Source: Candidatus Saccharimonadota bacterium
GTDB taxonomy: Bacteria > Pseudomonadota > Alphaproteobacteria > CAJXXZ01 > 1604HC
NCBI RefSeq assembly: GCF_008189525.1
Contig: NZ_CP043314.1
Coordinates: forward strand, 583,989 to 615,988
Reading direction: 5' to 3'
Length of the DNA: 32,000 bases
This document shows, one piece after another, positions 4,931-15,426 of this stretch. A program made the position numbers and the translations under genes. Position 1 is the stretch's first letter, and each line of letters starts with the position of its first letter. The notes below the pieces were generated by a model that was given only the letters and a program-made list of their open reading frames with translations, was not told the DNA's origin and did not search any database.

Positions 4931-5206
4931 ATGCTTAAAGACAGAAAATACACCAAGTATGAACTTGTTTCAGCATTAACTCAAAGAGCTAAGCAACTGT
5001 TTGCAGGAGATGATCCTAGAGTAGAAACAAAGCATTCTGAAAAACTATCTTACATAGCGTTAAAAGAGTATATGCAAGGTCTTTTGGACATAGAATCTTT
5101 ACTTAATGAAGCTAAAATGATTTACACAGATCAGGCTGTAGCTTTTGAAGATGATGAAGATGATGACAACTATGCATTCGATGCAAACGAAGAAGACAAG
5201 CAATAA
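4931..5206 (+). CDS. rpoZ: DNA-directed RNA polymerase subunit omega
   Basis: KYELVSALTQRAKQLFAGDDPRVE....KLSYIALKEYMQGLL matches the omega core (nRFeLv.lAakRArQL ... K.v.iALrEia.G). The acidic C-terminal tail is also seen in Rickettsiales-type omega. Confidence 0.72.
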   Translation: MLKDRKYTKYELVSALTQRAKQLFAGDDPRVETKHSEKLSYIALKEYMQGLLDIESLLNEAKMIYTDQAVAFEDDEDDDNYAFDANEEDKQ

Positions 5207-5447: not shown

Positions 5448-5506
5448 ACATAAACATTGTGTATAAGGGTATATTTTGGTAAGTTCTTTGCAAGATCTCA
5501 GGAGGG
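5448..5506 (+). promoter_or_regulatory. conserved 5' leader with Shine-Dalgarno (AGGAGGG) and a possible promoter of the LRR operon; mirrored at 17238-17295 on the minus strand
   Basis: About 60 nt upstream of the LRR1 start are almost identical to the sequence upstream of LRR4 (acataaacattgtgtataagggtatattttggtaagttctttgcaagatctcaggaggg vs acataacattgcgtataagagtatattttggtaagttctttgcaagatctcaggaggg). A weak sigma70-like TTGTGT-17-TAAGTT can be read. The promoter call is only an inference from conservation. Confidence 0.35.
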
Positions 5507-5727
5507 ATGATGACAAGTAATTTGGATAAATTTACATCTGGAGCTAGTGCAAAACAGAGTGCTAACGCTAACGGAAGTACGAACAAGGCAAGCAAATCAA
5601 GCACTATGAGCAAAATGAGGAGCATACTGAAGCTATGCACACTTGCACTTACAGCCCAACACACAAACACGGTTGACATCCCGAAACTACACGACATCCC
5701 TAACGAACATGGTTGTTTTTATCATTT
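5448..5727 (+). repeat. outer inverted repeat, left copy (leader + first ~74 codons of LRR1)
   Basis: Aligns to the reverse complement of 17018-17295 with only a handful of mismatches and a 1-nt indel in the leader. Homology stops abruptly after ...ggttgtttttatcattt. Confidence 0.9.
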
Positions 5728-7522
5728 GAAATATACAAAAAATGGAACTTTGGATTTATATGAAAGCGGATTGCCAAAATATGAAAGTGGATTGGTAGAT
5801 CTGTTAGATGGAATGGTAGAAATGCATAAATTCAGCAAATCTGACATAGAATTTGTTGCGTTTCTAAGACATGAAATAGAAAAAATCCTTGAAGTTGATT
5901 ACAATAAGGGACTAGAAAATGACTTCTTACTTAAATTTCCAAAAATAAAGGGCATAATAGGAGATGGTGAGCTTGAAGAAGAAGTTTTAGCTGAACATGG
6001 ATACTCAAAAGAAGATTATGACAGTACTATTACTGGGTATAATGTTAGAGATTCTTTGGATTGTTTGATTCGTGCCAAGAGAATTTGGGGCAAAATGATT
6101 GACCAATATGGGGAAGAAGATCTTAACAAAATCAAAGATTCAGTAAAAAATGCAAACCATGAATACGAATTAGGGAAAAAAACTCACCTAAACTTAAAAG
6201 TTATGCATAATTTGGTAGGATATGGATTAAGGCAAAGAGAAGCAGCTGGTATGCCAGATGAATCTACATTTTTGCAAAGATGGTACTCTGGAAGACATGC
6301 TTATGCAGACGATAAAAAGTCTAAAGTATCTATAAAACTAGATAATAGTGCGTTTATTTATCAAGTAATTCCTACTAAAGATTCAGGCACAGACTATGAG
6401 AAGAAACCTTGCGAACGTCATTCGAATATTATGTCTGTTTCATATTTCGATGCAAATACAAAAACAGACAATTTAGTTTGGGCTGGAGATGAAAGAGAAT
6501 TAAAAGAGAGAACCTGCAAAGTTGTTCAATACAACAGCTTCCCAGATTTAAGAAACTTGGATAGAATCGGTCCAATTTTCCAATATGCACTGGCATTGAG
6601 ATATGTTCATTTAGATATCACAAGCCCTGATCATTTGTATTGGATGAGATTTGCGCAAGACTTGGAATATGTGAAATTGAGAGTTACAGAATCAGACCAC
6701 CTAAAGCACTTGGGTTTGTTGAAAAACACACAATACTTAGGTATTACTAACATAAACGTAGATGATGCAATCATTCTTCCTGAAGAAATCGGCACATTAA
6801 GCAAATTAAGGTGCTTACACTTGAGTGGAGTTGAAGGATATCCAAACCAGATTCATGGAATTAAAGGATTACGTGAAATTAAGTTCGTGGAATCCGAAGG
6901 TAAGATAGATAAAAGCTTAAGTGATTTAGATAAATTGGTACATTTGGAGTTAAGTGGTAAGGTAGAATTGCCTGAAACTATAGAATTATGGGGGCTAGAA
7001 TCTCTTGTTGCACCTAGCGCAGATATAGAAAAAATGCCTAGATTTATCTGCCCTGAATTAAGGTATTTAGATTTAGGAAGTGCAAGATTAGACCATGCTT
7101 TAGAGCCTGGAGCAAAATTACCTATATTTGCAGGTGGTAATGAAATGACCAAAGCAGTAGATTTATCTGAATGCCCTGAGCTACGTGAAGTTTGGGTTGG
7201 AAACAGAATCAACGAAGTTGACGTGTCTGTGTTTAAGAGTTGCAAAAAGTTGATGTATATTGGACTTGGAGTTGATTTTAAGTACAGTATTAAATCAGGT
7301 TTGACTGAGTATGTTAAGAAAAATGAGCTATTCTTCGAGTTACTACATCCACTTAATGCAGGTGAAAAATTGCAATACAACTGTAAGATTCCAGGAGAAG
7401 ATGGTGAGTGGCTGAAGTTAAAGAGATACCAAGAAAACCAAAAGAGAAATTGGGTAAGAAATAAAAATGCTAGATATAAGCATATGGCAAAAATCTTGAA
7501 AGAAAATGGTCAGCTAAAATAG
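5507..7522 (+). CDS. leucine-rich-repeat protein, island paralog 1 (candidate secreted effector)
   Basis: 671-aa ORF, very long for an AT-rich genome. The C-terminal half has LxxLxxLxL repeats with a eukaryote-like LPEEIGxLxxLxxLxL unit (LPEEIGTLSKLRCLHLSG, LDKLVHLELSG, PELRYLDLGS, CPELREVWVGN). The N-terminal ~330 aa have no motif I recognise. The S/T/N/A-rich head is followed by the shared MSKMR.ILKLCTLALTAQHTNTVDIPKLHD module. Confidence 0.8.
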   Translation: MMTSNLDKFTSGASAKQSANANGSTNKASKSSTMSKMRSILKLCTLALTAQHTNTVDIPKLHDIPNEHGCFYHLKYTKNGTLDLYESGLPKYESGLVDLLDGMVEMHKFSKSDIEFVAFLRHEIEKILEVDYNKGLENDFLLKFPKIKGIIGDGELEEEVLAEHGYSKEDYDSTITGYNVRDSLDCLIRAKRIWGKMIDQYGEEDLNKIKDSVKNANHEYELGKKTHLNLKVMHNLVGYGLRQREAAGMPDESTFLQRWYSGRHAYADDKKSKVSIKLDNSAFIYQVIPTKDSGTDYEKKPCERHSNIMSVSYFDANTKTDNLVWAGDERELKERTCKVVQYNSFPDLRNLDRIGPIFQYALALRYVHLDITSPDHLYWMRFAQDLEYVKLRVTESDHLKHLGLLKNTQYLGITNINVDDAIILPEEIGTLSKLRCLHLSGVEGYPNQIHGIKGLREIKFVESEGKIDKSLSDLDKLVHLELSGKVELPETIELWGLESLVAPSADIEKMPRFICPELRYLDLGSARLDHALEPGAKLPIFAGGNEMTKAVDLSECPELREVWVGNRINEVDVSVFKSCKKLMYIGLGVDFKYSIKSGLTEYVKKNELFFELLHPLNAGEKLQYNCKIPGEDGEWLKLKRYQENQKRNWVRNKNARYKHMAKILKENGQLK

Positions 7523-10500
7523 ATGGAGGCAAAAAATATGATTACAAACAAATATAAAATGGGTAATATGAGCAAAATGAGGAACATACTGAAGCTATGC
7601 ACACTTGCACTTACAGCCCAACACACAAACACGGTTGACATCCCTAAACTACACGACACCCCTAACGAACATGGTTGTTTTTATCATTTTAAGTACGTTG
7701 AAGGAACTTTTAGCATAGAAAAGAATGAAACTTTTGAACTTTTAGAGCAAATGTATGAACAAAGTAAATACAGCATAGAGGATATTAAATTAATCGCATT
7801 TCTAAGACATGAACTAGAGAAGATACTTGAAATTGATTATAAAAAAGGATTGGAAAATGATTTCTTGCTAAAGTTTCCAAAAATAGAAGAAGTTATGGGA
7901 GATGGAGAATGGGAAGAGGAGGTTTTCCTAGGTCATGGATATTCAAAAGAAGAGTATAGACAAACTGATATAGTCTGTAACGTCAGAGATGCTATTTCTT
8001 ATATGGAATATACAAAAAGAATCTGGGGCAAAATTATAAAACAAGAAGATGAGGAAACTGCTAAAGAAATAAAAGATTCAGTAAAAAATACAAATCATGA
8101 ATGCGAGCTAGGTCAGAAAACCTATCTAAACTTAGGAGCTATGCTTAATTCCATAGGATATGGATTGAGACAGAGAAAAGAAGCTAGAATGCCAGGTGAA
8201 TCTACATTTTTGCAAAGGTGGTATTCTGGAAGACATGCTTATGAAGATGACAAAAAATCTAAAGTATCTATAAAGTTGGATAATAGCAAATTTATCTATC
8301 AGGGCATACCCACTAAAGATTCAGGAACTGACTATGAGAAAAAACCTATAGAATATAATAATTCTACAGATTTGATGTATTTATCCTATTTCGATGCAAA
8401 CACAAAAACAGATAATCTGGTATGGTGTGGAGATGAAAGAGAACTTAAGGAAAGAACCTGCAAAGTTGTTCAATACAATAGCTTTCCAGATTTGAGAAAC
8501 TTGGATAGGATAGGTCCAATTTTCCAATATGCACTGGCTTTAAGGTATGTTCATTTGGATATAACAAGCCCTGATCATTTGTATTGGATGAGATTCGCAC
8601 AAGATTTGGAATATGTGAAATTGCGTGTAAAAGAATCAGATCATCTAACACATTTAGGTTTGTTGAAAAATACACAATACCTTGGAATTACCAACATAAA
8701 CGTAGACGAAGCGATCGTTCTTCCTGAAGAAATCGGCACATTAAGCAAATTAAGGTGCTTACACTTGAGTGGAGTTGAAGGATATCCGAACCAGATTCAT
8801 GGAATAAAAGGATTACGTGAAATTAAGTTCGTGGAATCTGAAGGTAAAATTGATAAAAGTTTGAGCAACCTAGATAAACTTGTTCATTTAGAGCTAAGTG
8901 GAAAAGTAGAATTGCCTGAAACCATAGAACTATGGGAACTACAATCTCTAGTTGCACCTAGTGCAGACATAGAAAAGATGCCTAAGTTTATTTGCCCTGA
9001 ATTAAGATATTTGGATCTAGGAAGTGCAAGATTAGAGCATGCTTTAGAACCTGGAGCAAAATTGCCTATATTTGCAGGTGGTAATGAAATAACAAGCGTA
9101 TCTGACTTATCTGAATGTCCAGAATTAAGAGAAGTTTGGGTTGGAAACAGAATCAACGAAGTTGATGTTGAAGTGTTTAAGAATTGCAAGAAGTTGATGT
9201 ACATAGGATTAGGAGTTGATTTTAAATATAATATCAAGCAAGGATTAACTGAGTATGTTAAGAAAAATGAGCTATTCTTAGAGTTACTACATCCACTTAA
9301 TGCAGGAGAAAAACTTCAATACAGCTGTAAGATTCCAGGTGAAGATGGTGAATGGTTGAAATTGAAGAGATACCAAGAAAATCAAAAAAGAAATTGGGTA
9401 AGAAATAAAAATGCTAGATATAAGCATATGGCAAAAATCTTGAAAGAAAATGGTCAGCTAAAATAGATGGAGGCAAAAAATATGATTACAAACAAATATA
9501 AAATGGGTAATATGAGCAAAATGAGGAACATACTGAAATTGTGTACGCTTGCACTTACAGCCCAACACACAAACACGGTTGACATCCCGAAACTACATGA
9601 CACCCCTAACGAACATGGCTGTTTTTATCATTTTAAGTACGTTGAAGGAACATTGAATCTGGAACAGAATGAAACCTACGAACTTTTGGAAGGAATGTAT
9701 GAGCAAAGCAAATACAGCTCAGAAGATATAAAATTGATTGCCTTCTTAAGACACGAACTAGAAAAGATTCTTGAAGTTGATTATAAAAAGGGGTTAGAAA
9801 ATGACTTCTTGCTCAAGTTTCCTAAAATAGAGGAAGTTATGGGAGACGGAGAATGGGAAGAAGAAGTTCTACTAGGTCATGGATACTCAAAAGAAGATTA
9901 CAGACAAACTGTTATTACCTGTAATGTTAGAGATTCTTTTGATTGCTTGATTCGCTCAAAAAGGATCTGGGGCAAGATGATTGACCAATATGGAGAAGAG
10001 GATCTAAACAAAATAAAAGATTCAATAAAAAATGCAAACCATGAGCATGAATTTGGAAAGAAAACTCATCTTAATTTAAAAGTTATGCATAATTTGGTAG
10101 GATATGGATTAAGACAAAGAGAAGCAGCTAAAATGCCAGATGAATCTACATTTTTGCAAAGATGGTACTCTGGAAGACATGCTTATGAAGATGACAAAAA
10201 ATCTAAAGTATCTATAAAGTTAGATAACAGTGCATTTATTTATCAAGGCATCCCTACTAAAGATTCAGAAACTGATTATGAAAATAAACCTTGCGAACGT
10301 GATTCAAATATTATGTATGTATCATATTTCGATGCAAATACAAAAACAGACAATTTAGTTTGGGCTGGAGATGAAAGAGAATTAAAAGAGAGAACCTGCA
10401 AAGTTGTTCAATACAATAGTTTCCCCGATTTAAGAAACTTGGACAGAATCGGTCCTATTTTCCAATATGCATTGGCTTTAAGGTATGTACATTTGGATAT

Positions 10501-11330
10501 CACTAGCCCTGATCATTTGTACTGGATGAGATTTGCACAAGACTTAGAGTATGTGAAATTGAGAGTTACAGAATCAGACCACCTAAAGCACTTGGGTTTG
10601 TTAAAAAACACACAATACCTTGGAATTACCAACATAAACGTAGATGATGCAATCGTTCTTCCTGAAGAAATTGGTAGTTTAAGCAAATTAAGATGCTTAC
10701 ATTTAAGCGGAGTTGAAGGATATCCAAACCAGATCCATGGCATTAAGGGATTACGCGAAATTAAATTCGTAGAATCTGAAGGTAAGATAGACAAAAGCTT
10801 AAGTAATCTGGACAAGCTTGTTCACTTAGAACTAAGCGGTAAAGTAGAGTTGCCTGAAACCATAGAATTATGGGAACTACAATCTCTAGTTGCACCTAGT
10901 GCAGACATAGAGAAAATGCCCCAATTTATCTGCCCTGAATTAAGATACTTAGATCTAGGAAGTGCAAGATTAGAGCATGCTTTAGAACCTGGAGCAAAAT
11001 TGCCTATATTTGCAGGTGGTAATGAAATTACTAGCGTATCTGACTTGTCCGAATGTCCTGAGCTACGTGAAGTTTGGGTTGGAAACAGAATCAACGAAGT
11101 TGACGTGTCTGTATTTAAGAGTTGTAAGAAGTTGATGTATATTGGACTTGGAGTTGATTTTAAGTACAGTATTAAATCAGGTTTGACTGAGTATGTTAAG
11201 AAAAATGAGCTATTCTTCGAGTTACTACATCCACTTAATGCAGGTGAGAAATTGCAATACAACTGCAAGATTCCAGGAGAAGATGGTGAGTGGTTGAAAT
11301 TAAAGAGATACCAAGAAAACCAAAAGAGAA
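5606..11330 (+). repeat. tandem direct repeat of whole LRR genes, about 3 units (period 1944 bp between units 2 and 3, 1962 bp between units 1 and 2)
   Basis: The ATGAGCAAAATGAGG (MSKMR) anchor recurs at 5606, 7568 and 9512. The two inter-unit junctions (…gaaaatggtcagctaaaatagatggaggcaaaaaatatgattacaaac…) are identical. Homology ends near 11330, where unit 3 acquires a different tail. Confidence 0.9.
7523..9466 (+). CDS. leucine-rich-repeat protein, island paralog 2
   Basis: 647-aa ORF starting immediately after the TAG of paralog 1. GGAGG at 7525-7529 lies 8 nt upstream of the ATG at 7538, so 7538 is the more likely true start. The gene is highly similar to paralogs 1 and 3. Confidence 0.8.
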   Translation: MEAKNMITNKYKMGNMSKMRNILKLCTLALTAQHTNTVDIPKLHDTPNEHGCFYHFKYVEGTFSIEKNETFELLEQMYEQSKYSIEDIKLIAFLRHELEKILEIDYKKGLENDFLLKFPKIEEVMGDGEWEEEVFLGHGYSKEEYRQTDIVCNVRDAISYMEYTKRIWGKIIKQEDEETAKEIKDSVKNTNHECELGQKTYLNLGAMLNSIGYGLRQRKEARMPGESTFLQRWYSGRHAYEDDKKSKVSIKLDNSKFIYQGIPTKDSGTDYEKKPIEYNNSTDLMYLSYFDANTKTDNLVWCGDERELKERTCKVVQYNSFPDLRNLDRIGPIFQYALALRYVHLDITSPDHLYWMRFAQDLEYVKLRVKESDHLTHLGLLKNTQYLGITNINVDEAIVLPEEIGTLSKLRCLHLSGVEGYPNQIHGIKGLREIKFVESEGKIDKSLSNLDKLVHLELSGKVELPETIELWELQSLVAPSADIEKMPKFICPELRYLDLGSARLEHALEPGAKLPIFAGGNEITSVSDLSECPELREVWVGNRINEVDVEVFKNCKKLMYIGLGVDFKYNIKQGLTEYVKKNELFLELLHPLNAGEKLQYSCKIPGEDGEWLKLKRYQENQKRNWVRNKNARYKHMAKILKENGQLK

Positions 11331-11389
11331 GCTGGATGAGAAAAGAACACCCAAGGTACAAACGCATGGAAAAGATCTTTAAGGTTTAA
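9467..11389 (+). CDS. leucine-rich-repeat protein, island paralog 3 (mosaic of paralogs 1 and 2, unique C-terminal tail)
   Basis: 640-aa ORF with the same TAG-ATGGAGGCAAAAAATATG junction as at 7520-7540, so the likely true start is 9482. The sequence alternates between paralog-2-like and paralog-1-like blocks. The last ~20 aa (SWMRKEHPRYKRMEKIFKV) are unique. Confidence 0.8.
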   Translation: MEAKNMITNKYKMGNMSKMRNILKLCTLALTAQHTNTVDIPKLHDTPNEHGCFYHFKYVEGTLNLEQNETYELLEGMYEQSKYSSEDIKLIAFLRHELEKILEVDYKKGLENDFLLKFPKIEEVMGDGEWEEEVLLGHGYSKEDYRQTVITCNVRDSFDCLIRSKRIWGKMIDQYGEEDLNKIKDSIKNANHEHEFGKKTHLNLKVMHNLVGYGLRQREAAKMPDESTFLQRWYSGRHAYEDDKKSKVSIKLDNSAFIYQGIPTKDSETDYENKPCERDSNIMYVSYFDANTKTDNLVWAGDERELKERTCKVVQYNSFPDLRNLDRIGPIFQYALALRYVHLDITSPDHLYWMRFAQDLEYVKLRVTESDHLKHLGLLKNTQYLGITNINVDDAIVLPEEIGSLSKLRCLHLSGVEGYPNQIHGIKGLREIKFVESEGKIDKSLSNLDKLVHLELSGKVELPETIELWELQSLVAPSADIEKMPQFICPELRYLDLGSARLEHALEPGAKLPIFAGGNEITSVSDLSECPELREVWVGNRINEVDVSVFKSCKKLMYIGLGVDFKYSIKSGLTEYVKKNELFFELLHPLNAGEKLQYNCKIPGEDGEWLKLKRYQENQKRSWMRKEHPRYKRMEKIFKV

Positions 11390-11393
11390 TTCA

Positions 11394-12143
11394 GTGGGAG
11401 CAAGAGGAGATCGTTCTACTAAGGAAAAAAAAGAAAAAGCAAAGGAAGTAGAACAGCAGCAAGAAACCATAATTGATGAAGAACCCGTCGATCCAGATAT
11501 AGGAAGTATATGTCAGATATACGATGAGAAGTGGGGCGAGACGGTAAGGAACGTAAATGCAGGTACGTATCAGAAACTGATGACGCTTACAAATTTCGGT
11601 ACAATTGAAGAACTAGAAATAGAGGAAGAGCTGTCTGAGCCTTACACTATAAAAGGTAAGTGTTTCTTTTGGGAAGAGATATATGGCGACGTAGTTGGCA
11701 TGGAACCGAAGGTCACATTAGCAACAGAAGGTAAAACAAGATATTGGCACGGAGTTATAACTGAGTGGATCGAAGGTGGAACTGATCTTAAGGACGAAAG
11801 ATATTACTACGAATTCGAGATGCGACCAAAATTATGGTATAGGATGCAAAGCAGGCAAAACAAGATACATGTGTCGGATAAGGGCATGCGTGTTAAGGAA
11901 CTGGCAAGCAAACTAATCGAAGATGCGATGCAGAATAATAAAAATACGAAAGTAAAGTTTGAGCAAAAGTACGATGTTAATTTCGCAAAAGTGAAATCAG
12001 CTCAAAATAATCCAAATGAACCATTGATAGAATATGCTGTGCAATATGAAGAAACTACTTACGGTTTCTTCCAAAGATTACTAAGCAATCATGGTATATT
12101 TTATTATTATAAAGTCGAAGACAATTATTCCTGCCTAAGCTAA
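11394..12143 (+). pseudogene. vgrG: vgrG 5' fragment (gp27-like N-terminal ~240 codons only); truncated paralog, possibly still translated
   Basis: Residues ~33-240 are identical to residues ~28-235 of the full VgrG (12853-15426, minus strand) except for two positions. After ...GIFYYYK the sequence diverges and stops 9 codons later (VEDNYSCLS*). There is only a GTG start, 5 nt after the LRR3 stop, and no ATG. Confidence 0.75.
11489..12113 (+). repeat. inner inverted repeat, left copy (vgrG 5' region)
   Basis: Hand alignment to the reverse complement of 14722-15346 gives ~625 bp with about 31 mismatches and no indels seen. The first ~110 bp are identical. Confidence 0.9.
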
Positions 12144-12274
12144 ATTCCACTTATTTAAAAAATCTGATTACTAGAGCTTACAATTAAAAAGATTGATAAG
12201 TGATAAAACTACAAAAACATAAACATACAAAATCAGAATTATCAACAAAATATTTCAACTGTAGTAAGAAAATA

Positions 12275-12853
12275 CTAACCCATCTCTACGCCAGATTCAA
12301 AATAAGTTTTCTTGATTATTTTTCCTTCTGGATCATATACAGTCCATTGCCCATCTTTTAAATCTTCAAGATACATTCCAGACTCCATGATAGAACCTGT
12401 TTTCGGATAAAAAGTCACAGAAAAACCATTCAATTTATTTTTCTGGAAAATTTCTTGTTTTAACAATTCTCCTTTTTCGAAAACCAAAAACAGCCCGCTT
12501 TTCTCTCCATTTTTGTAATTACCCTTATTAGATATTCCATTTGCATCAAATACGTACACAGGTCCGTGCATCAAATCATCTTTATAATTTGTAATCATTA
12601 ATAAATTCCCAGATTCATATATTTCCATAGGCCCATTCATCTTATTACCAGAATAATTTGTGCGTCTCGTTATGACACTTTTCTCATAAAGAGTCTCTTC
12701 GCCTTCTTTTTCTCCAGCTTTGGAATAGTATCTCTGTACCAGATTTCCTTCTTTATCCCTTATTTCATTATAATCTAAATCACTTTGATCTGATTCTTTG
12801 ACTGCTCCACAAGGCTTATAAAAATCGACTATTTGTTCTTTTGTTATATTCAT
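12275..12853 (-). CDS. MORN-repeat-variant (YwqK-like) protein, translationally coupled to vgrG
   Basis: 192 aa with repeated units of G....Y..G...G of ~23 aa (NYSGNKMNGPMEIYESGNLL, NYKDDLMHGPVYVFDANGIS, NYKNGEKSGLFLVFEKGELL, FQKNKLNGFSVTFYPKTGSI, MYLEDLKDGQWTVYDPEGKI). The ATG overlaps the vgrG TAA by 1 nt (CTAATG at 12851-12856). Confidence 0.7.
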   Translation of the reverse strand: MNITKEQIVDFYKPCGAVKESDQSDLDYNEIRDKEGNLVQRYYSKAGEKEGEETLYEKSVITRRTNYSGNKMNGPMEIYESGNLLMITNYKDDLMHGPVYVFDANGISNKGNYKNGEKSGLFLVFEKGELLKQEIFQKNKLNGFSVTFYPKTGSIMESGMYLEDLKDGQWTVYDPEGKIIKKTYFESGVEMG

Positions 12854-15426
12854 TAGTTTATTTTTACCATTGAACCCTTTATATTAGCAATTGTGTCTGC
12901 CTTTAAATCCAATTTAGCTCCTTTTATAGACACTCCCGCTTTTCCTTCTATTGAAACTTGTCCCGAAGATTTCAAGCTTATATTAGCATTCGAAGAAATT
13001 TCTACAGATTTGCTAGATTCCATATTAATTCCATCTGCAGAAATTTTTATAGCACCTCCACTTATAGATATTGTATAATCACCAGACTTTATACTAATTG
13101 ACTTGTTCCCTTTTATATCAGATTTAAAGTCCCCACTTGATAATGAAATTGATAAATCACCTTTTTCTAATGTTGTACTCAAATTTCCTGAAGCCAATTT
13201 CATATCCAAATTACCTTTTTCTATTTCGTTAGAAATATTTCCTTCTGTGATTTTCTCTATCAAATCACCTTTGGAGATTTCTATTTTATGATGTGATTTC
13301 TCATCTCCCTTGGATAATAGAGAAATTTCCTTGCTCCCTTTTTCTAGTGTTATTTTATAATCACCCTGCTTTTCATCATCTTCAGCTAGAGTGCTTATTT
13401 CTATATTTCCATTATTTACCTGCGTATCAATATCCCCTTGTTTTACAAGCAAAATTTTGTCATTTTCTATTTCTGTAAGTAAATCTTTCTGTGCATGGAT
13501 ATAAATTTGCTCTTCTTCAGCTTTATCAGATATAGTAATTTCATTGAATCCAAAATCTTCTTTTTCATCATCAATTGTTTTGGTTCTCAATCCAGTTTTA
13601 TGAGAATCATCTGGCAAATCATATGGATTAGAATTTATGCTATTAAATACCGTACCTATAACAATAGGGTTGTCTGGATTTCCATTTTCATAAGTAACTA
13701 TTACTTCTTGTCCAACTCTAGGTATGTAAGAGCCTCCAAATCCAGCGCCTGATCCTCCCCATTGTGCGACTCTCACCCAGCAAGATCTTTCAGAATAAGA
13801 AAGCGTATCATCGTTGTCCCAGTTGAATTTTATTTTCACTCTACCTAAGTCATCAGTGTTGATTTCTGCATTATCAGGCCCTACCACAATAGCAGATTGA
13901 TATCCTAATATTTGTCTTTTTACTTTAGGAAGCACTTTAAAAACTGTATTCTCTTTCAGGAAAATAGATTCATTTACATAAGAATATTCAAACCCACTTA
14001 CTTGACCAGCTTTGCTTTTTATATTTTGTTGTTTGTACAAAGGGTCAGTTAACGACTCTTCTGCCATTTCTGGGTTTTTCAAAAACAGTTTATGCTTAGT
14101 TTTTCTAGCATAGTATTTATTATCTATGACTTCTTTTACCTGATCAGGAAGATCTCTTTTTGATGCTGCTTTAACATCTGATTTAATTTTTTTTATTTTA
14201 CTTTTCTTTTCAGTTTTGTAAACTTTTGTATGTTGATATAAATCTAGGGCAGATTTTAGCTCAAACAAATATCCAGGGCTAATCAAAAAATTACTTGTCA
14301 CAGACTTATATTGAGTTTTTACAGACTCTGATGAGTCAGTAATATGCTTTGCATGGTCCTCTGCAGCATCTGGGTCAGTTAATGTTTCGAAGTATTCATT
14401 ATTTTCAAAGCCTTCTTCAGCATTTCCCTCATGCTTTTTCTCTTCAACTTTTCCAAGTTTATCGAATTCTACCTCGATACCTGCTTTTTCGTAATTTCGA
14501 CCTCTTGCCTTTTGTTTTCCTATCGCATATCTGTTTACTTTTCCCCATGTATCCACAAAAGGGCTGTTTATTTCATCTGATCCCTGTTTAGATAAGAACA
14601 AGTTGTCATAATTAGCTTCGACCTTGTCATTATCACCTATTTCAATCTTACGTATGCCTGTAATAGGTTCCATTTTGGAAGTGTTATCCTTGAATATGAT
14701 TTTACTTCCATCTTTCGCATGTTTATAGTAATAAAATATACCATGATTGCTCAGTAACCTTTGAAAAAACTCATATGTAGTTTCTTCATATTGAACTGCA
14801 TATTCTATTAACGGTCCGTTTGGATTATTTTGAGCTGATTTCACTTTTGCGAAATTAACATCGTACTTTTGCTCAAATTTTACTTTCGTATTCTTGTTAT
14901 TCTGCATCGCATCTTCGATTAGTTTGCTTGCCAGCTCCTTAACACGCATGCCCTTATCCGACACATGTATCTTGTTTTGCCTGCTTTGCATCCTATACCA
15001 TAATTTTGGTCGCATCTCGAATTCGTAGTAATATCTTTCATCCTTAAGATCAGTTCCACCTTCGATCCACTCAGTTATAACTCCGTGCCAATATCTTGTT
15101 TTACCTTCTGTTGCCAATGTGACCTTCGGCTCCATACCAACTACGTCGCCATATATCTCTTCCCAAAAGAAACACTTACCTTTTATAGTATAAGGTTCCG
15201 ATAATTCTTCCTCTATCTCGAGTTCTTCAATTGTACCGAAATTTGTAAGCGTCATCAGTTTCTGATACGTACCTGCATTTACGTTCCTTACCGTCTCGCC
15301 CCACTTCTCATCGTATATCTGACATATACTTCCTATATCTGGATCGGTAGTTTGAGATTCAGCACTTTTCTGTGCAGAAACTTCACCGTCTTTAGTTTTC
15401 TTTTTCTCTTTATTTTGTTTAATCAT
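12853..15426 (-). CDS. vgrG: type VI secretion spike protein VgrG (gp27-like + gp5-like OB fold + beta-helix; no C-terminal effector domain evident)
   Basis: The classic VgrG core is present: GYQSAIVVGPDNAEINTDDLGRVKIKFNWDND....SCWVRVAQWGGSGAGFGGSYIPRVGQEVIVTYENGNPDNPIVIGTVFNS...PYDLPD..HKTGLRTKT......GFNEITISDKAEEEQIYIHAQKDL. It is followed by short K/S/G/D-rich beta-helix repeats (EKGDLSISLSSGDFKSDIKGNKSISIKSGDYTISISGG...) and ends in ...GSMVKIN. Confidence 0.92.
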   Translation of the reverse strand: MIKQNKEKKKTKDGEVSAQKSAESQTTDPDIGSICQIYDEKWGETVRNVNAGTYQKLMTLTNFGTIEELEIEEELSEPYTIKGKCFFWEEIYGDVVGMEPKVTLATEGKTRYWHGVITEWIEGGTDLKDERYYYEFEMRPKLWYRMQSRQNKIHVSDKGMRVKELASKLIEDAMQNNKNTKVKFEQKYDVNFAKVKSAQNNPNGPLIEYAVQYEETTYEFFQRLLSNHGIFYYYKHAKDGSKIIFKDNTSKMEPITGIRKIEIGDNDKVEANYDNLFLSKQGSDEINSPFVDTWGKVNRYAIGKQKARGRNYEKAGIEVEFDKLGKVEEKKHEGNAEEGFENNEYFETLTDPDAAEDHAKHITDSSESVKTQYKSVTSNFLISPGYLFELKSALDLYQHTKVYKTEKKSKIKKIKSDVKAASKRDLPDQVKEVIDNKYYARKTKHKLFLKNPEMAEESLTDPLYKQQNIKSKAGQVSGFEYSYVNESIFLKENTVFKVLPKVKRQILGYQSAIVVGPDNAEINTDDLGRVKIKFNWDNDDTLSYSERSCWVRVAQWGGSGAGFGGSYIPRVGQEVIVTYENGNPDNPIVIGTVFNSINSNPYDLPDDSHKTGLRTKTIDDEKEDFGFNEITISDKAEEEQIYIHAQKDLLTEIENDKILLVKQGDIDTQVNNGNIEISTLAEDDEKQGDYKITLEKGSKEISLLSKGDEKSHHKIEISKGDLIEKITEGNISNEIEKGNLDMKLASGNLSTTLEKGDLSISLSSGDFKSDIKGNKSISIKSGDYTISISGGAIKISADGINMESSKSVEISSNANISLKSSGQVSIEGKAGVSIKGAKLDLKADTIANIKGSMVKIN
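14722..15346 (-). repeat. inner inverted repeat, right copy (5' region of intact vgrG)
   Basis: Reverse complement of 11489-12113; see the left copy. Confidence 0.9.

Follow-up and report, generated by a model that had tools for sequence, protein, structure and literature searches.

How should three tandem genes that share one reading frame and differ from each other in patches be read: as a single recoded gene, as a cassette array in which recombination diversifies a protein surface, as an assembly artefact, or as ordinary paralogs? This question is raised by three genes encoding leucine-rich-repeat (LRR) proteins, here named LRR1, LRR2 and LRR3, in a 32,000-nt stretch of DNA (the window) from Ca. 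Nesciobacter abundans, a member of the Holosporaceae that has a genome of 616 kb and lives as an endosymbiont in the protist Diplonema japonicum. We find that the block structure of the three genes is genuinely mosaic and gene-conversion-like, that they are separate cistrons, and that they are old duplicates held by purifying selection. Together with a fourth paralog (LRR4) and two copies of vgrG, they probably belong to a two-operon, lineage-specific LRR family of proteins that are linked to a type VI secretion system (T6SS), are likely secreted for host interaction, and have been shaped by occasional RecA-dependent gene conversion.

Mosaic structure and age of the LRR1-3 genes

The three genes are arranged as follows:

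5507-7522, plus strand: LRR1, 671 aa, stop codon TAG
7523-9466, plus strand: LRR2, 647 aa from the ATG at 7523 or 642 aa from the ATG at 7538, which is preceded by a Shine-Dalgarno (SD) sequence; stop codon TAG
9467-11389, plus strand: LRR3, 640 aa, or 635 aa from the ATG at 9482; the most mosaic copy; stop codon TAA

LRR1 is composed of a 33-residue polar extension, a 43-residue head (nt 5606-5734), an orphan N-terminal domain (N-domain), an LRR solenoid (approximately residues 365-615) and a basic tail.

A codon-aware alignment of LRR1-3 comprises 1,920 ungapped nt with 447 variable sites. In a 3SEQ-like test that takes LRR1 and LRR2 as parents and LRR3 as their child, the maximum excursion is 79, while the null distribution has a mean of 27.5 and a maximum of 53 (0 of 20,000 permutations). 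The site patterns fall into 92 runs, compared to 161.7 ± 8.9 under the null (again 0 of 20,000 permutations), and the longest identical tracts in a GENECONV-like test exceed the null for every pair. When only synonymous sites are used, namely codons that specify the same amino acid in all three genes, there are 44 runs vs. 68.9 ± 5.6 expected (0 of 20,000). Since the clustering persists at these sites, the pattern is genealogical and does not arise from selection on the protein. It should be noted that the single-excursion test is weak for synonymous sites (924 of 20,000), because many alternating blocks dilute any one excursion; for these sites it is the runs test that decides.

The blocks were delimited by hidden Markov model (HMM) segmentation of the informative sites, and the genealogy of LRR1-3 changes approximately 10 times along the gene. 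In alignment residues, the blocks and the closest pair in each are:

14-39: LRR2 and LRR3, 100% identical
42-62: LRR1 and LRR2
64-178: LRR2 and LRR3
179-260: LRR1 and LRR3
267-278: LRR2 and LRR3
278-425: LRR1 and LRR3
430-463: LRR1 and LRR2
465-474: LRR1 and LRR3
475-558: LRR2 and LRR3
559-648: LRR1 and LRR3
650-673: LRR1 and LRR2, 100% identical; the LRR3 tail is unique

In window coordinates, LRR3 is accordingly divided into:

9470-9528, 9634-9921, 10188-10220 and 10805-11056, plus strand: LRR2-like segments
9925-10168, 10222-10655, 10777-10804 and 11059-11326, plus strand: LRR1-like segments
9538-9619 (LRR4-like), 10672-10771 and the tail 11331-11386, plus strand: segments distinct from both LRR1 and LRR2

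An earlier note on this DNA, made from the letters and their translations, had described LRR3 as a chimera of LRR1 and LRR2 blocks with a unique tail and had proposed a breakpoint test on a codon-aware alignment. The segmentation recovers the blocks that it listed and adds others that it had not seen, and the 3SEQ-like, runs and GENECONV-like results all bear out the mosaic.

Tandem repeats are where misassembly classically arises, and collapsed or chimeric repeats might thus have created the array or its mosaic. This explanation is excluded for practical purposes, because the three proteins diverge from one another by 12-18%, no exact repeat is longer than 149 nt, the record is a PacBio HiFi assembly, and identical proteins are found on a second contig. 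A data note on Diplonema japonicum gives OY490516.1 (GCA_960610765.1, 616,058 bp) as the PacBio HiFi assembly of Candidatus Nesciobacter abundans, and the LRR2 protein maps to this record. The second contig, of 616,088 bp, has exact matches to all four LRR proteins as well as to VgrG, VgrG' and the MORN protein described below.

The divergence between copies gives an indication of the age of the exchanges. By the Nei-Gojobori method, whole-gene synonymous divergence (dS) among LRR1-3 is 0.69-0.85, and omega, the ratio of non-synonymous divergence (dN) to dS, is 0.08-0.15. Omega is highest, at about 0.34, in the most variable blocks, and none of the blocks gives a signal of diversifying selection. 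Between the sister copies within blocks, dS is 0 at the junction; 0.05-0.15 at the head, at 430-464 and at 559-649; approximately 0.5 at 179-266, 279-429 and 475-558; and up to 1.25 at 74-178. This range points to exchanges of different dates, most of them old. LRR1-3 are therefore not recent copies: they are old duplicates held by purifying selection, and each of the three is kept as a functional paralog that is not redundant with the others.

As the earlier note had observed, the differences between copies are clustered in patches, set against a nearly invariant LRR scaffold: 95 of 284 columns are variable in the N-domain vs. 20 of 265 in the LRR region, where dS is 0.5-0.8 and dN is 0.03-0.05. 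Its further proposal, that the locus is a recombining cassette array diversifying a surface of the protein, is not supported by these data. An active array of this kind, in which frequent recombination renews exposed-surface variants as in antigenic variation, would fit the reality of the mosaic blocks, the concentration of amino-acid differences in N-domain patches, the very recent exact 149-nt tract at the junction and the presence of recombination genes in the genome. However, with a between-copy dS of 0.69-0.85 and a dS of at least 0.15 in most sister blocks, the exchanges must have been rare and old, and omega stays at or below about 0.34 even in the most variable blocks. Every copy is a complete, full-length gene preceded by an SD sequence, with no silent cassettes, and the proteins are identical in two assemblies. 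Moreover, conversion among three fixed copies homogenises them and makes no new sequence. We therefore consider active diversification improbable. The arrangement also differs from that of pilE-pilS, vlsE and msp2-type systems, which combine a single expression site with silent or partial donors, whereas LRR1-3 are all complete open reading frames (ORFs) with their own SD sequence and ATG.

Junctions between the genes and the shared reading frame

The region 5507-11389 is open in a single frame in which the only stop codons are the TAG at 7520, the TAG at 9464 and the final TAA at 11387. ORF prediction and translation thus confirm what had been noticed first at this locus, namely three tandem LRR genes in one frame separated by single TAG codons at 7520-7522 and 9464-9466. 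Each TAG is directly followed by ATGGAGGCAAAAAATATG, which places a GGAGG motif 8 nt before a second ATG (7538 and 9482), also as previously described; public gene calls begin LRR2 and LRR3 at this second ATG, giving proteins of 642 and 635 aa, respectively. The first junction extends over:

7445-7593, plus strand: the LRR1 tail, TAG at 7520-7522, a 15-nt spacer with GGAGG, the ATG at 7538 and the LRR2 head

This segment is repeated exactly over 149 nt at the second junction (9389-9537).

The continuous frame, broken by two TAG codons only, might suggest that these codons are read through or recoded to give a polyprotein of approximately 1,960 residues. Several observations make this extremely improbable. 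Four further ORFs, at 12275, 22583, 25759 and 28019, have TAG as their stop codon, and the window holds no suppressor tRNA, its only tRNAs being Gln-UUG and Asn-GUU. A strong SD sequence and an ATG follow each TAG, and no RNA structure was detected at the junction (fold z = 0.67). Furthermore, since the two junctions are one 149-nt exact copy, the in-frame arrangement counts as a single event with a prior of approximately 1/3. That the genes are in one frame is a consequence of the length of the repeat unit, 1944 nt (648 codons). The shared reading frame of LRR1-3 is thus not significant and has no demonstrated meaning.

LRR1-3 are separate cistrons, each boundary consisting of a genuine stop codon and, 15 nt on, an SD-preceded ATG. 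Re-initiation coupling had been suggested to be built into this arrangement. The SD sequence after each TAG stands, and the spacing permits coupled translation: a 15-nt intercistronic spacer carrying an SD sequence is ordinary tight operon packing, which is the simplest reading.

A fourth paralog and two convergent LRR-vgrG operons

Three items of context were missing from the earlier note: a fourth LRR gene on the other strand, the linkage to vgrG, and a set of nested inverted repeats. The features concerned with the fourth gene are:

15432-17237, minus strand: LRR4, 601 aa, a divergent paralog
5453-5733, plus strand: LRR1 5' module, consisting of 54 nt upstream (with the SD sequence AGGAGG at 5500-5505) and the first 76 codons
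17011-17291, minus strand: LRR4 5' module, consisting of the promoter/SD region and the head; partner arm of 5453-5733
5606-5734, 7568-7696 and 9512-9640, plus strand, and 17010-17138, minus strand: head core of 129 nt common to LRR1-4

LRR4 is 31-36% identical to LRR1-3 overall, yet its first 76 residues are near-identical to those of LRR1. The two 5' modules form an inverted repeat (5453-5733 / 17011-17291) of 281 nt that is 96% complementary, with 52 of 54 positions matching in the upstream part and 217 of 228 in the coding part. Nucleotide identity among all four LRR genes has its onset precisely at the ATG of MSKMR and extends over 129 nt. The head core so defined encodes MSKMR(N/S)ILKLCTLALTAQHTNTVDIPKLHD(T/I)PNEHGCFYH(F/L)KY, and the 43-residue head of the four genes is MSKMRNILKLCTLALTAQHTNTVDIPKLHDTPNEHGCFYHFKY. 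The head-core repeats (D5, I3 and I4) are 91-97% identical. Within the head core, LRR3 and LRR4 have common synonymous variants (AAA/TTG-CTG/TGT/ACG) that set them apart from LRR1 and LRR2, which indicates that exchange has also taken place between the two inverted operons.

Upstream of the head, LRR1 and LRR4 (5507-5605 and, on the minus strand, 17139-17237) have an identical 33-residue polar N-terminal extension that is rich in Ser, Asn and Lys; LRR2 and LRR3 have a different leader of 10-15 residues in its place. Derivation of this leader from the start of vgrG was considered and dropped, as the alignment is unconvincing.

The remaining genes of the locus are:

11394-12143, plus strand: vgrG', a truncated copy of 249 aa, gp27/Phage_GPD N-terminal part only (Pfam Phage_GPD, E = 1.3e-18)
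12853-15426, minus strand: full-length vgrG, encoding the T6SS spike protein, 857 aa (TIGR03361, E = 6e-91; Pfam Phage_GPD, Phage_base_V and Gp5_trimer_C)
12275-12853, minus strand: MORN-repeat (YwqK-type) gene, downstream of vgrG

The locus is therefore made up of two convergent operons, one with head-LRR1, LRR2, LRR3 and vgrG', the other with head-LRR4, vgrG and the MORN/YwqK gene, and the nested inverted repeats frame them. vgrG' begins 4 nt after the LRR3 stop codon, and the LRR4 stop codon lies 5 nt before the start of vgrG, in each case in the same orientation; the linkage to vgrG that is used to recognize T6SS cargo is thus found in both operons. A Trinity transcriptome of D. japonicum contains the N-terminal part of the full vgrG, a sign that the gene is transcribed. 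The MORN gene is considered to encode a putative immunity protein (George et al. 2019/2020, doi 10.1101/719211).

The inner inverted repeat (11489-12113 / 14722-15346) joins vgrG' and vgrG; it is 625 nt long and 95% complementary. VgrG' has 94% amino-acid identity to VgrG, and over 208 codons 28.5 synonymous but only 2.5 non-synonymous changes separate the two genes. The resulting omega of 0.02 shows that vgrG' has not evolved as a decaying pseudogene: it is either functional, or recently truncated, or periodically rejoined to its 3' part. The nested inverted repeats may act as a RecA-driven switch, which would invert 12114-14721 via the 625-nt vgrG arms, and the head would then be a loading signal of a new type for a T6SS lacking Hcp. 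If so, the switch would take the 3' part of vgrG, together with the MORN gene, out of the LRR4 operon and place it in the LRR1-3 operon, would toggle which LRR set is co-expressed with a complete spike, and would explain the omega of 0.02 for vgrG' in place of pseudogene decay. Both assemblies (616,058 and 616,088 bp) have the locus in the same orientation, and we regard this proposal as a long shot.

Regarding its surroundings, the LRR-vgrG island has a GC content of 0.32-0.39 vs. 0.28-0.31 in the flanks, and it is bordered by:

4931-5206: rpoZ, adjoining the LRR1 end of the island
17359-17431, minus strand: tRNA-Gln(UUG), adjoining the LRR4 end

The flanking genes (20677-21447, minus strand; 17641-20539, plus strand) are of housekeeping type. 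These include a gene for an Hda-like DnaA regulator and genes for xthA-like, DnaQ/RNase T-like and RNase D-like exonucleases, as well as ndk, a pgsA-like gene, and genes for transketolase, the Der GTPase and a BamB-like protein. The island is thus embedded in the core genome. Further along, a gene at 23973-24602 (plus strand) encodes a GH108 muramidase with a PG_binding_3 domain, i.e. a lysozyme of the phage, gene transfer agent or T6SS type in a 616-kb endosymbiont genome. An Rfam scan of the window matched the two tRNAs and nothing else, and a promoter and terminator scan gave no excess over the shuffled expectation.

Candidate functions of the LRR proteins and related systems

The C-terminal halves of LRR1-3 are LRR solenoids. 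Pfam LRR_14 is matched at E = 1e-8 to 3e-7, below its gathering score, while for LRR_4 the cut-off is exceeded in LRR2, LRR3 and LRR4, and LRR_8 was also matched in the scan. In a profile search of the PDB, the Leptospira LRR protein LIC11098 is found at E = 4e-20, and the top Foldseek matches are all LRR solenoids, including Leptospira LRR proteins, the internalins InlA, InlH and InlF, SHOC2 and LRRC8. The LRR superfamily assignment is thus secure, and the family itself is lineage-specific with four members.

The head and the N-domain of approximately 330 residues form an orphan region in which sequence searches detect no homolog, since word-index, profile, Pfam and head-pattern searches gave no match there. 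A word-index search of a 5.8-billion-protein collection with LRR1 returned the window's own paralogs only. An exhaustive profile search of 1.84 billion representatives gave 2,150 LRR proteins; among the matches listed, the profile is covered at approximately 375-580 and none extends into the N-domain, and the N-domain profile has a best E of 0.38 on the 148 listed matches. No credible match to the N-domains appears in Pfam at E up to 10, nor any relative in a metagenome scan with the head patterns NEHGCFY and MSKMR[NS]IL. An N-domain alignment search also gave no match, yet it did not return the query's own proteins either, which makes it a weak negative.

Our favoured explanation, that of an exported LRR family tied to the T6SS, would account for these features as follows. 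The switches in genealogy would result from repeated short-tract homologous (RecA-dependent) gene conversion or unequal exchange over a long time, with the junction tract as the most recent exchange, and the same process may have acted between the inverted operons on the head and the 5' part of vgrG. LRR1-4 would be exported host-interaction factors tied to the spike of a T6SS that lacks Hcp. The invariant 43-residue head may be what all four share for loading or export, the LRR solenoid, which hardly varies, may bind a common partner, and the variable orphan N-domain may give each paralog its specificity. In earlier work, LRR genes were reported upstream and downstream of the T6SS vgrG gene in Cytomitobacter and Nesciobacter, with a proposed role in host interaction; RecA/RecFOR have been kept, Hcp and TssJ are missing from the T6SS, and the genome-wide Pfam annotation of N. 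abundans has two LRR_4 and no LRR_8 (George et al., doi 10.1101/719211). According to a review, none of the molecules secreted by the conserved T6SS of Holosporineae is known.

Several points weigh against this explanation. We infer both the secretion of the LRR proteins and their dependence on the T6SS from synteny only, and the function assignments from synteny together with LRR biology. No T6SS marker or adaptor domain (MIX, FIX, PAAR, Rhs, DUF4123, DUF1795 or DUF2169) was found in any ORF of the locus with Pfam and NCBIfam. Among more distant metagenomic vgrG loci, 0 of 28 have an LRR gene of the family in their flanks; the LRR-vgrG linkage is accordingly lineage-specific and could be incidental. 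Both AlphaFold models are poor, with a predicted local distance difference test score of 49 from the full-length alignment and 39 for the N-domain, such that they allow neither an interpretation of the N-domain nor a mapping of the variable patches. Three sequences without a usable outgroup do not reveal in which direction, or how many times, conversion took place. Finally, the head has a short hydrophobic stretch, ILKLCTLALTA, that may be a Sec signal instead.

The vgrG-MORN pair recurs in 5 of the distantly related loci from metagenomes and Logan (L003, L005, L009, L010 and L011). A word-index search with VgrG gave one Logan contig that has the vgrG-MORN pair and ends without upstream sequence, and a VgrG search of genome contigs returned an unrelated Gardnerella stretch only.

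The hydrophobic stretch in the head leads to an alternative in which the LRR proteins are exported by Sec to the periplasm or the surface, or are cargo of a system resembling type II secretion (T2SS), and their adjacency to vgrG is historical rather than functional. In its favour, the head segment MSKMRNILKLCTLALTA, followed by QH, resembles a short signal peptide in that its n-region is basic, its core is hydrophobic and the residue at -1 is A; the genome keeps Sec and a reduced T2SS/type IV pilus system, with a secretin gene nearby; and, as mentioned, T6SS marker domains were not found. However, in LRR1 and LRR4 there are 38 residues between the SD-preceded start and the hydrophobic stretch. 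The 33-codon extension that precedes the head is open, which we estimate to have a chance of approximately 5% in this base composition, and is conserved between LRR1 and LRR4. In addition, the hydrophobic core has only 11 residues and includes a Lys, and an LRR gene lies 4-5 nt upstream of a vgrG gene in both operons. Export by Sec is therefore unlikely, though it deserves more weight than the switch or the cassette array, and we retain the T6SS-linked reading.

Comparison with known systems places the locus further. The internalin clusters of Listeria (inlGHE or inlG-C2-D-E) consist of tandem LRR genes whose members are mosaic through recombination between neighbouring paralogs. LRR1-3 resemble them both in being tandem mosaic LRR genes and in having a similar solenoid fold, as seen from the internalins among the Foldseek matches. 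In internalins, the LRR is accompanied by a cap and an inter-repeat immunoglobulin-like domain, with a Sec signal at the N-terminus and LPXTG or GW anchors; Pfam scans of the LRR proteins found none of the internalin-specific domains. Here, in contrast, it is not the LRR but the orphan N-domain that varies, and there is linkage of the genes to a T6SS spike.

A second comparison concerns SspH1, SspH2 and SlrP of Salmonella and IpaH of Shigella, which are paralogous LRR effectors with a conserved N-terminal translocation region and divergent remainders. Their shared N-terminal region may be analogous to the invariant head of LRR1-4. These effectors are substrates of type III secretion and have a C-terminal NEL E3-ligase domain, whereas neither NEL nor another catalytic domain was found outside the LRR region of our proteins with Pfam and NCBIfam. 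The sole NCBIfam match is a weak one to XopAE (19.7 and 21 bits vs. a cut-off of 600). The domain order is also reversed, as the LRR of LRR1-4 is at the C-terminal end.

The locus also resembles vgrG-linked T6SS cargo islands and polymorphic toxin loci in the tight, co-oriented packing with vgrG, in the conserved N-terminal segment with divergent bodies, in the truncated 'orphan' copy (vgrG') and in the small downstream MORN/YwqK gene proposed to encode an immunity protein. It differs from them in that vgrG has the effector candidates upstream of it, neither an adaptor nor a marker domain was detected, and the variable part is not a C-terminal toxin.

The closest precedent is the set of LRR-vgrG genes described for Cytomitobacter and Nesciobacter, which is the same organism and the same genes as here (George et al., doi 10.1101/719211). 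The presence of LRR genes beside vgrG was thus already known. That study makes no mention of a triplication in tandem, of a gene-conversion mosaic, of a 43-residue head and a promoter in common, of vgrG' or of inverted repeats that are nested; what is new is the mosaic and the common head.

In themselves, conversion mosaics among tandem paralogs are ordinary gene-family evolution. What gives this locus its weight is the genome in which it is found. LRR1-4 are approximately the whole LRR complement of a 616-kb genome, of which they take up approximately 1.2%, and they are under strong purifying selection beside both copies of vgrG. These properties make them the most concrete effector candidates for the interaction of Nesciobacter with its diplonemid host and the mitochondrion of that host. 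The invariant 43-residue head provides a testable export or loading tag, and the locus shows that homologous gene conversion is still operating in a highly reduced endosymbiont genome.

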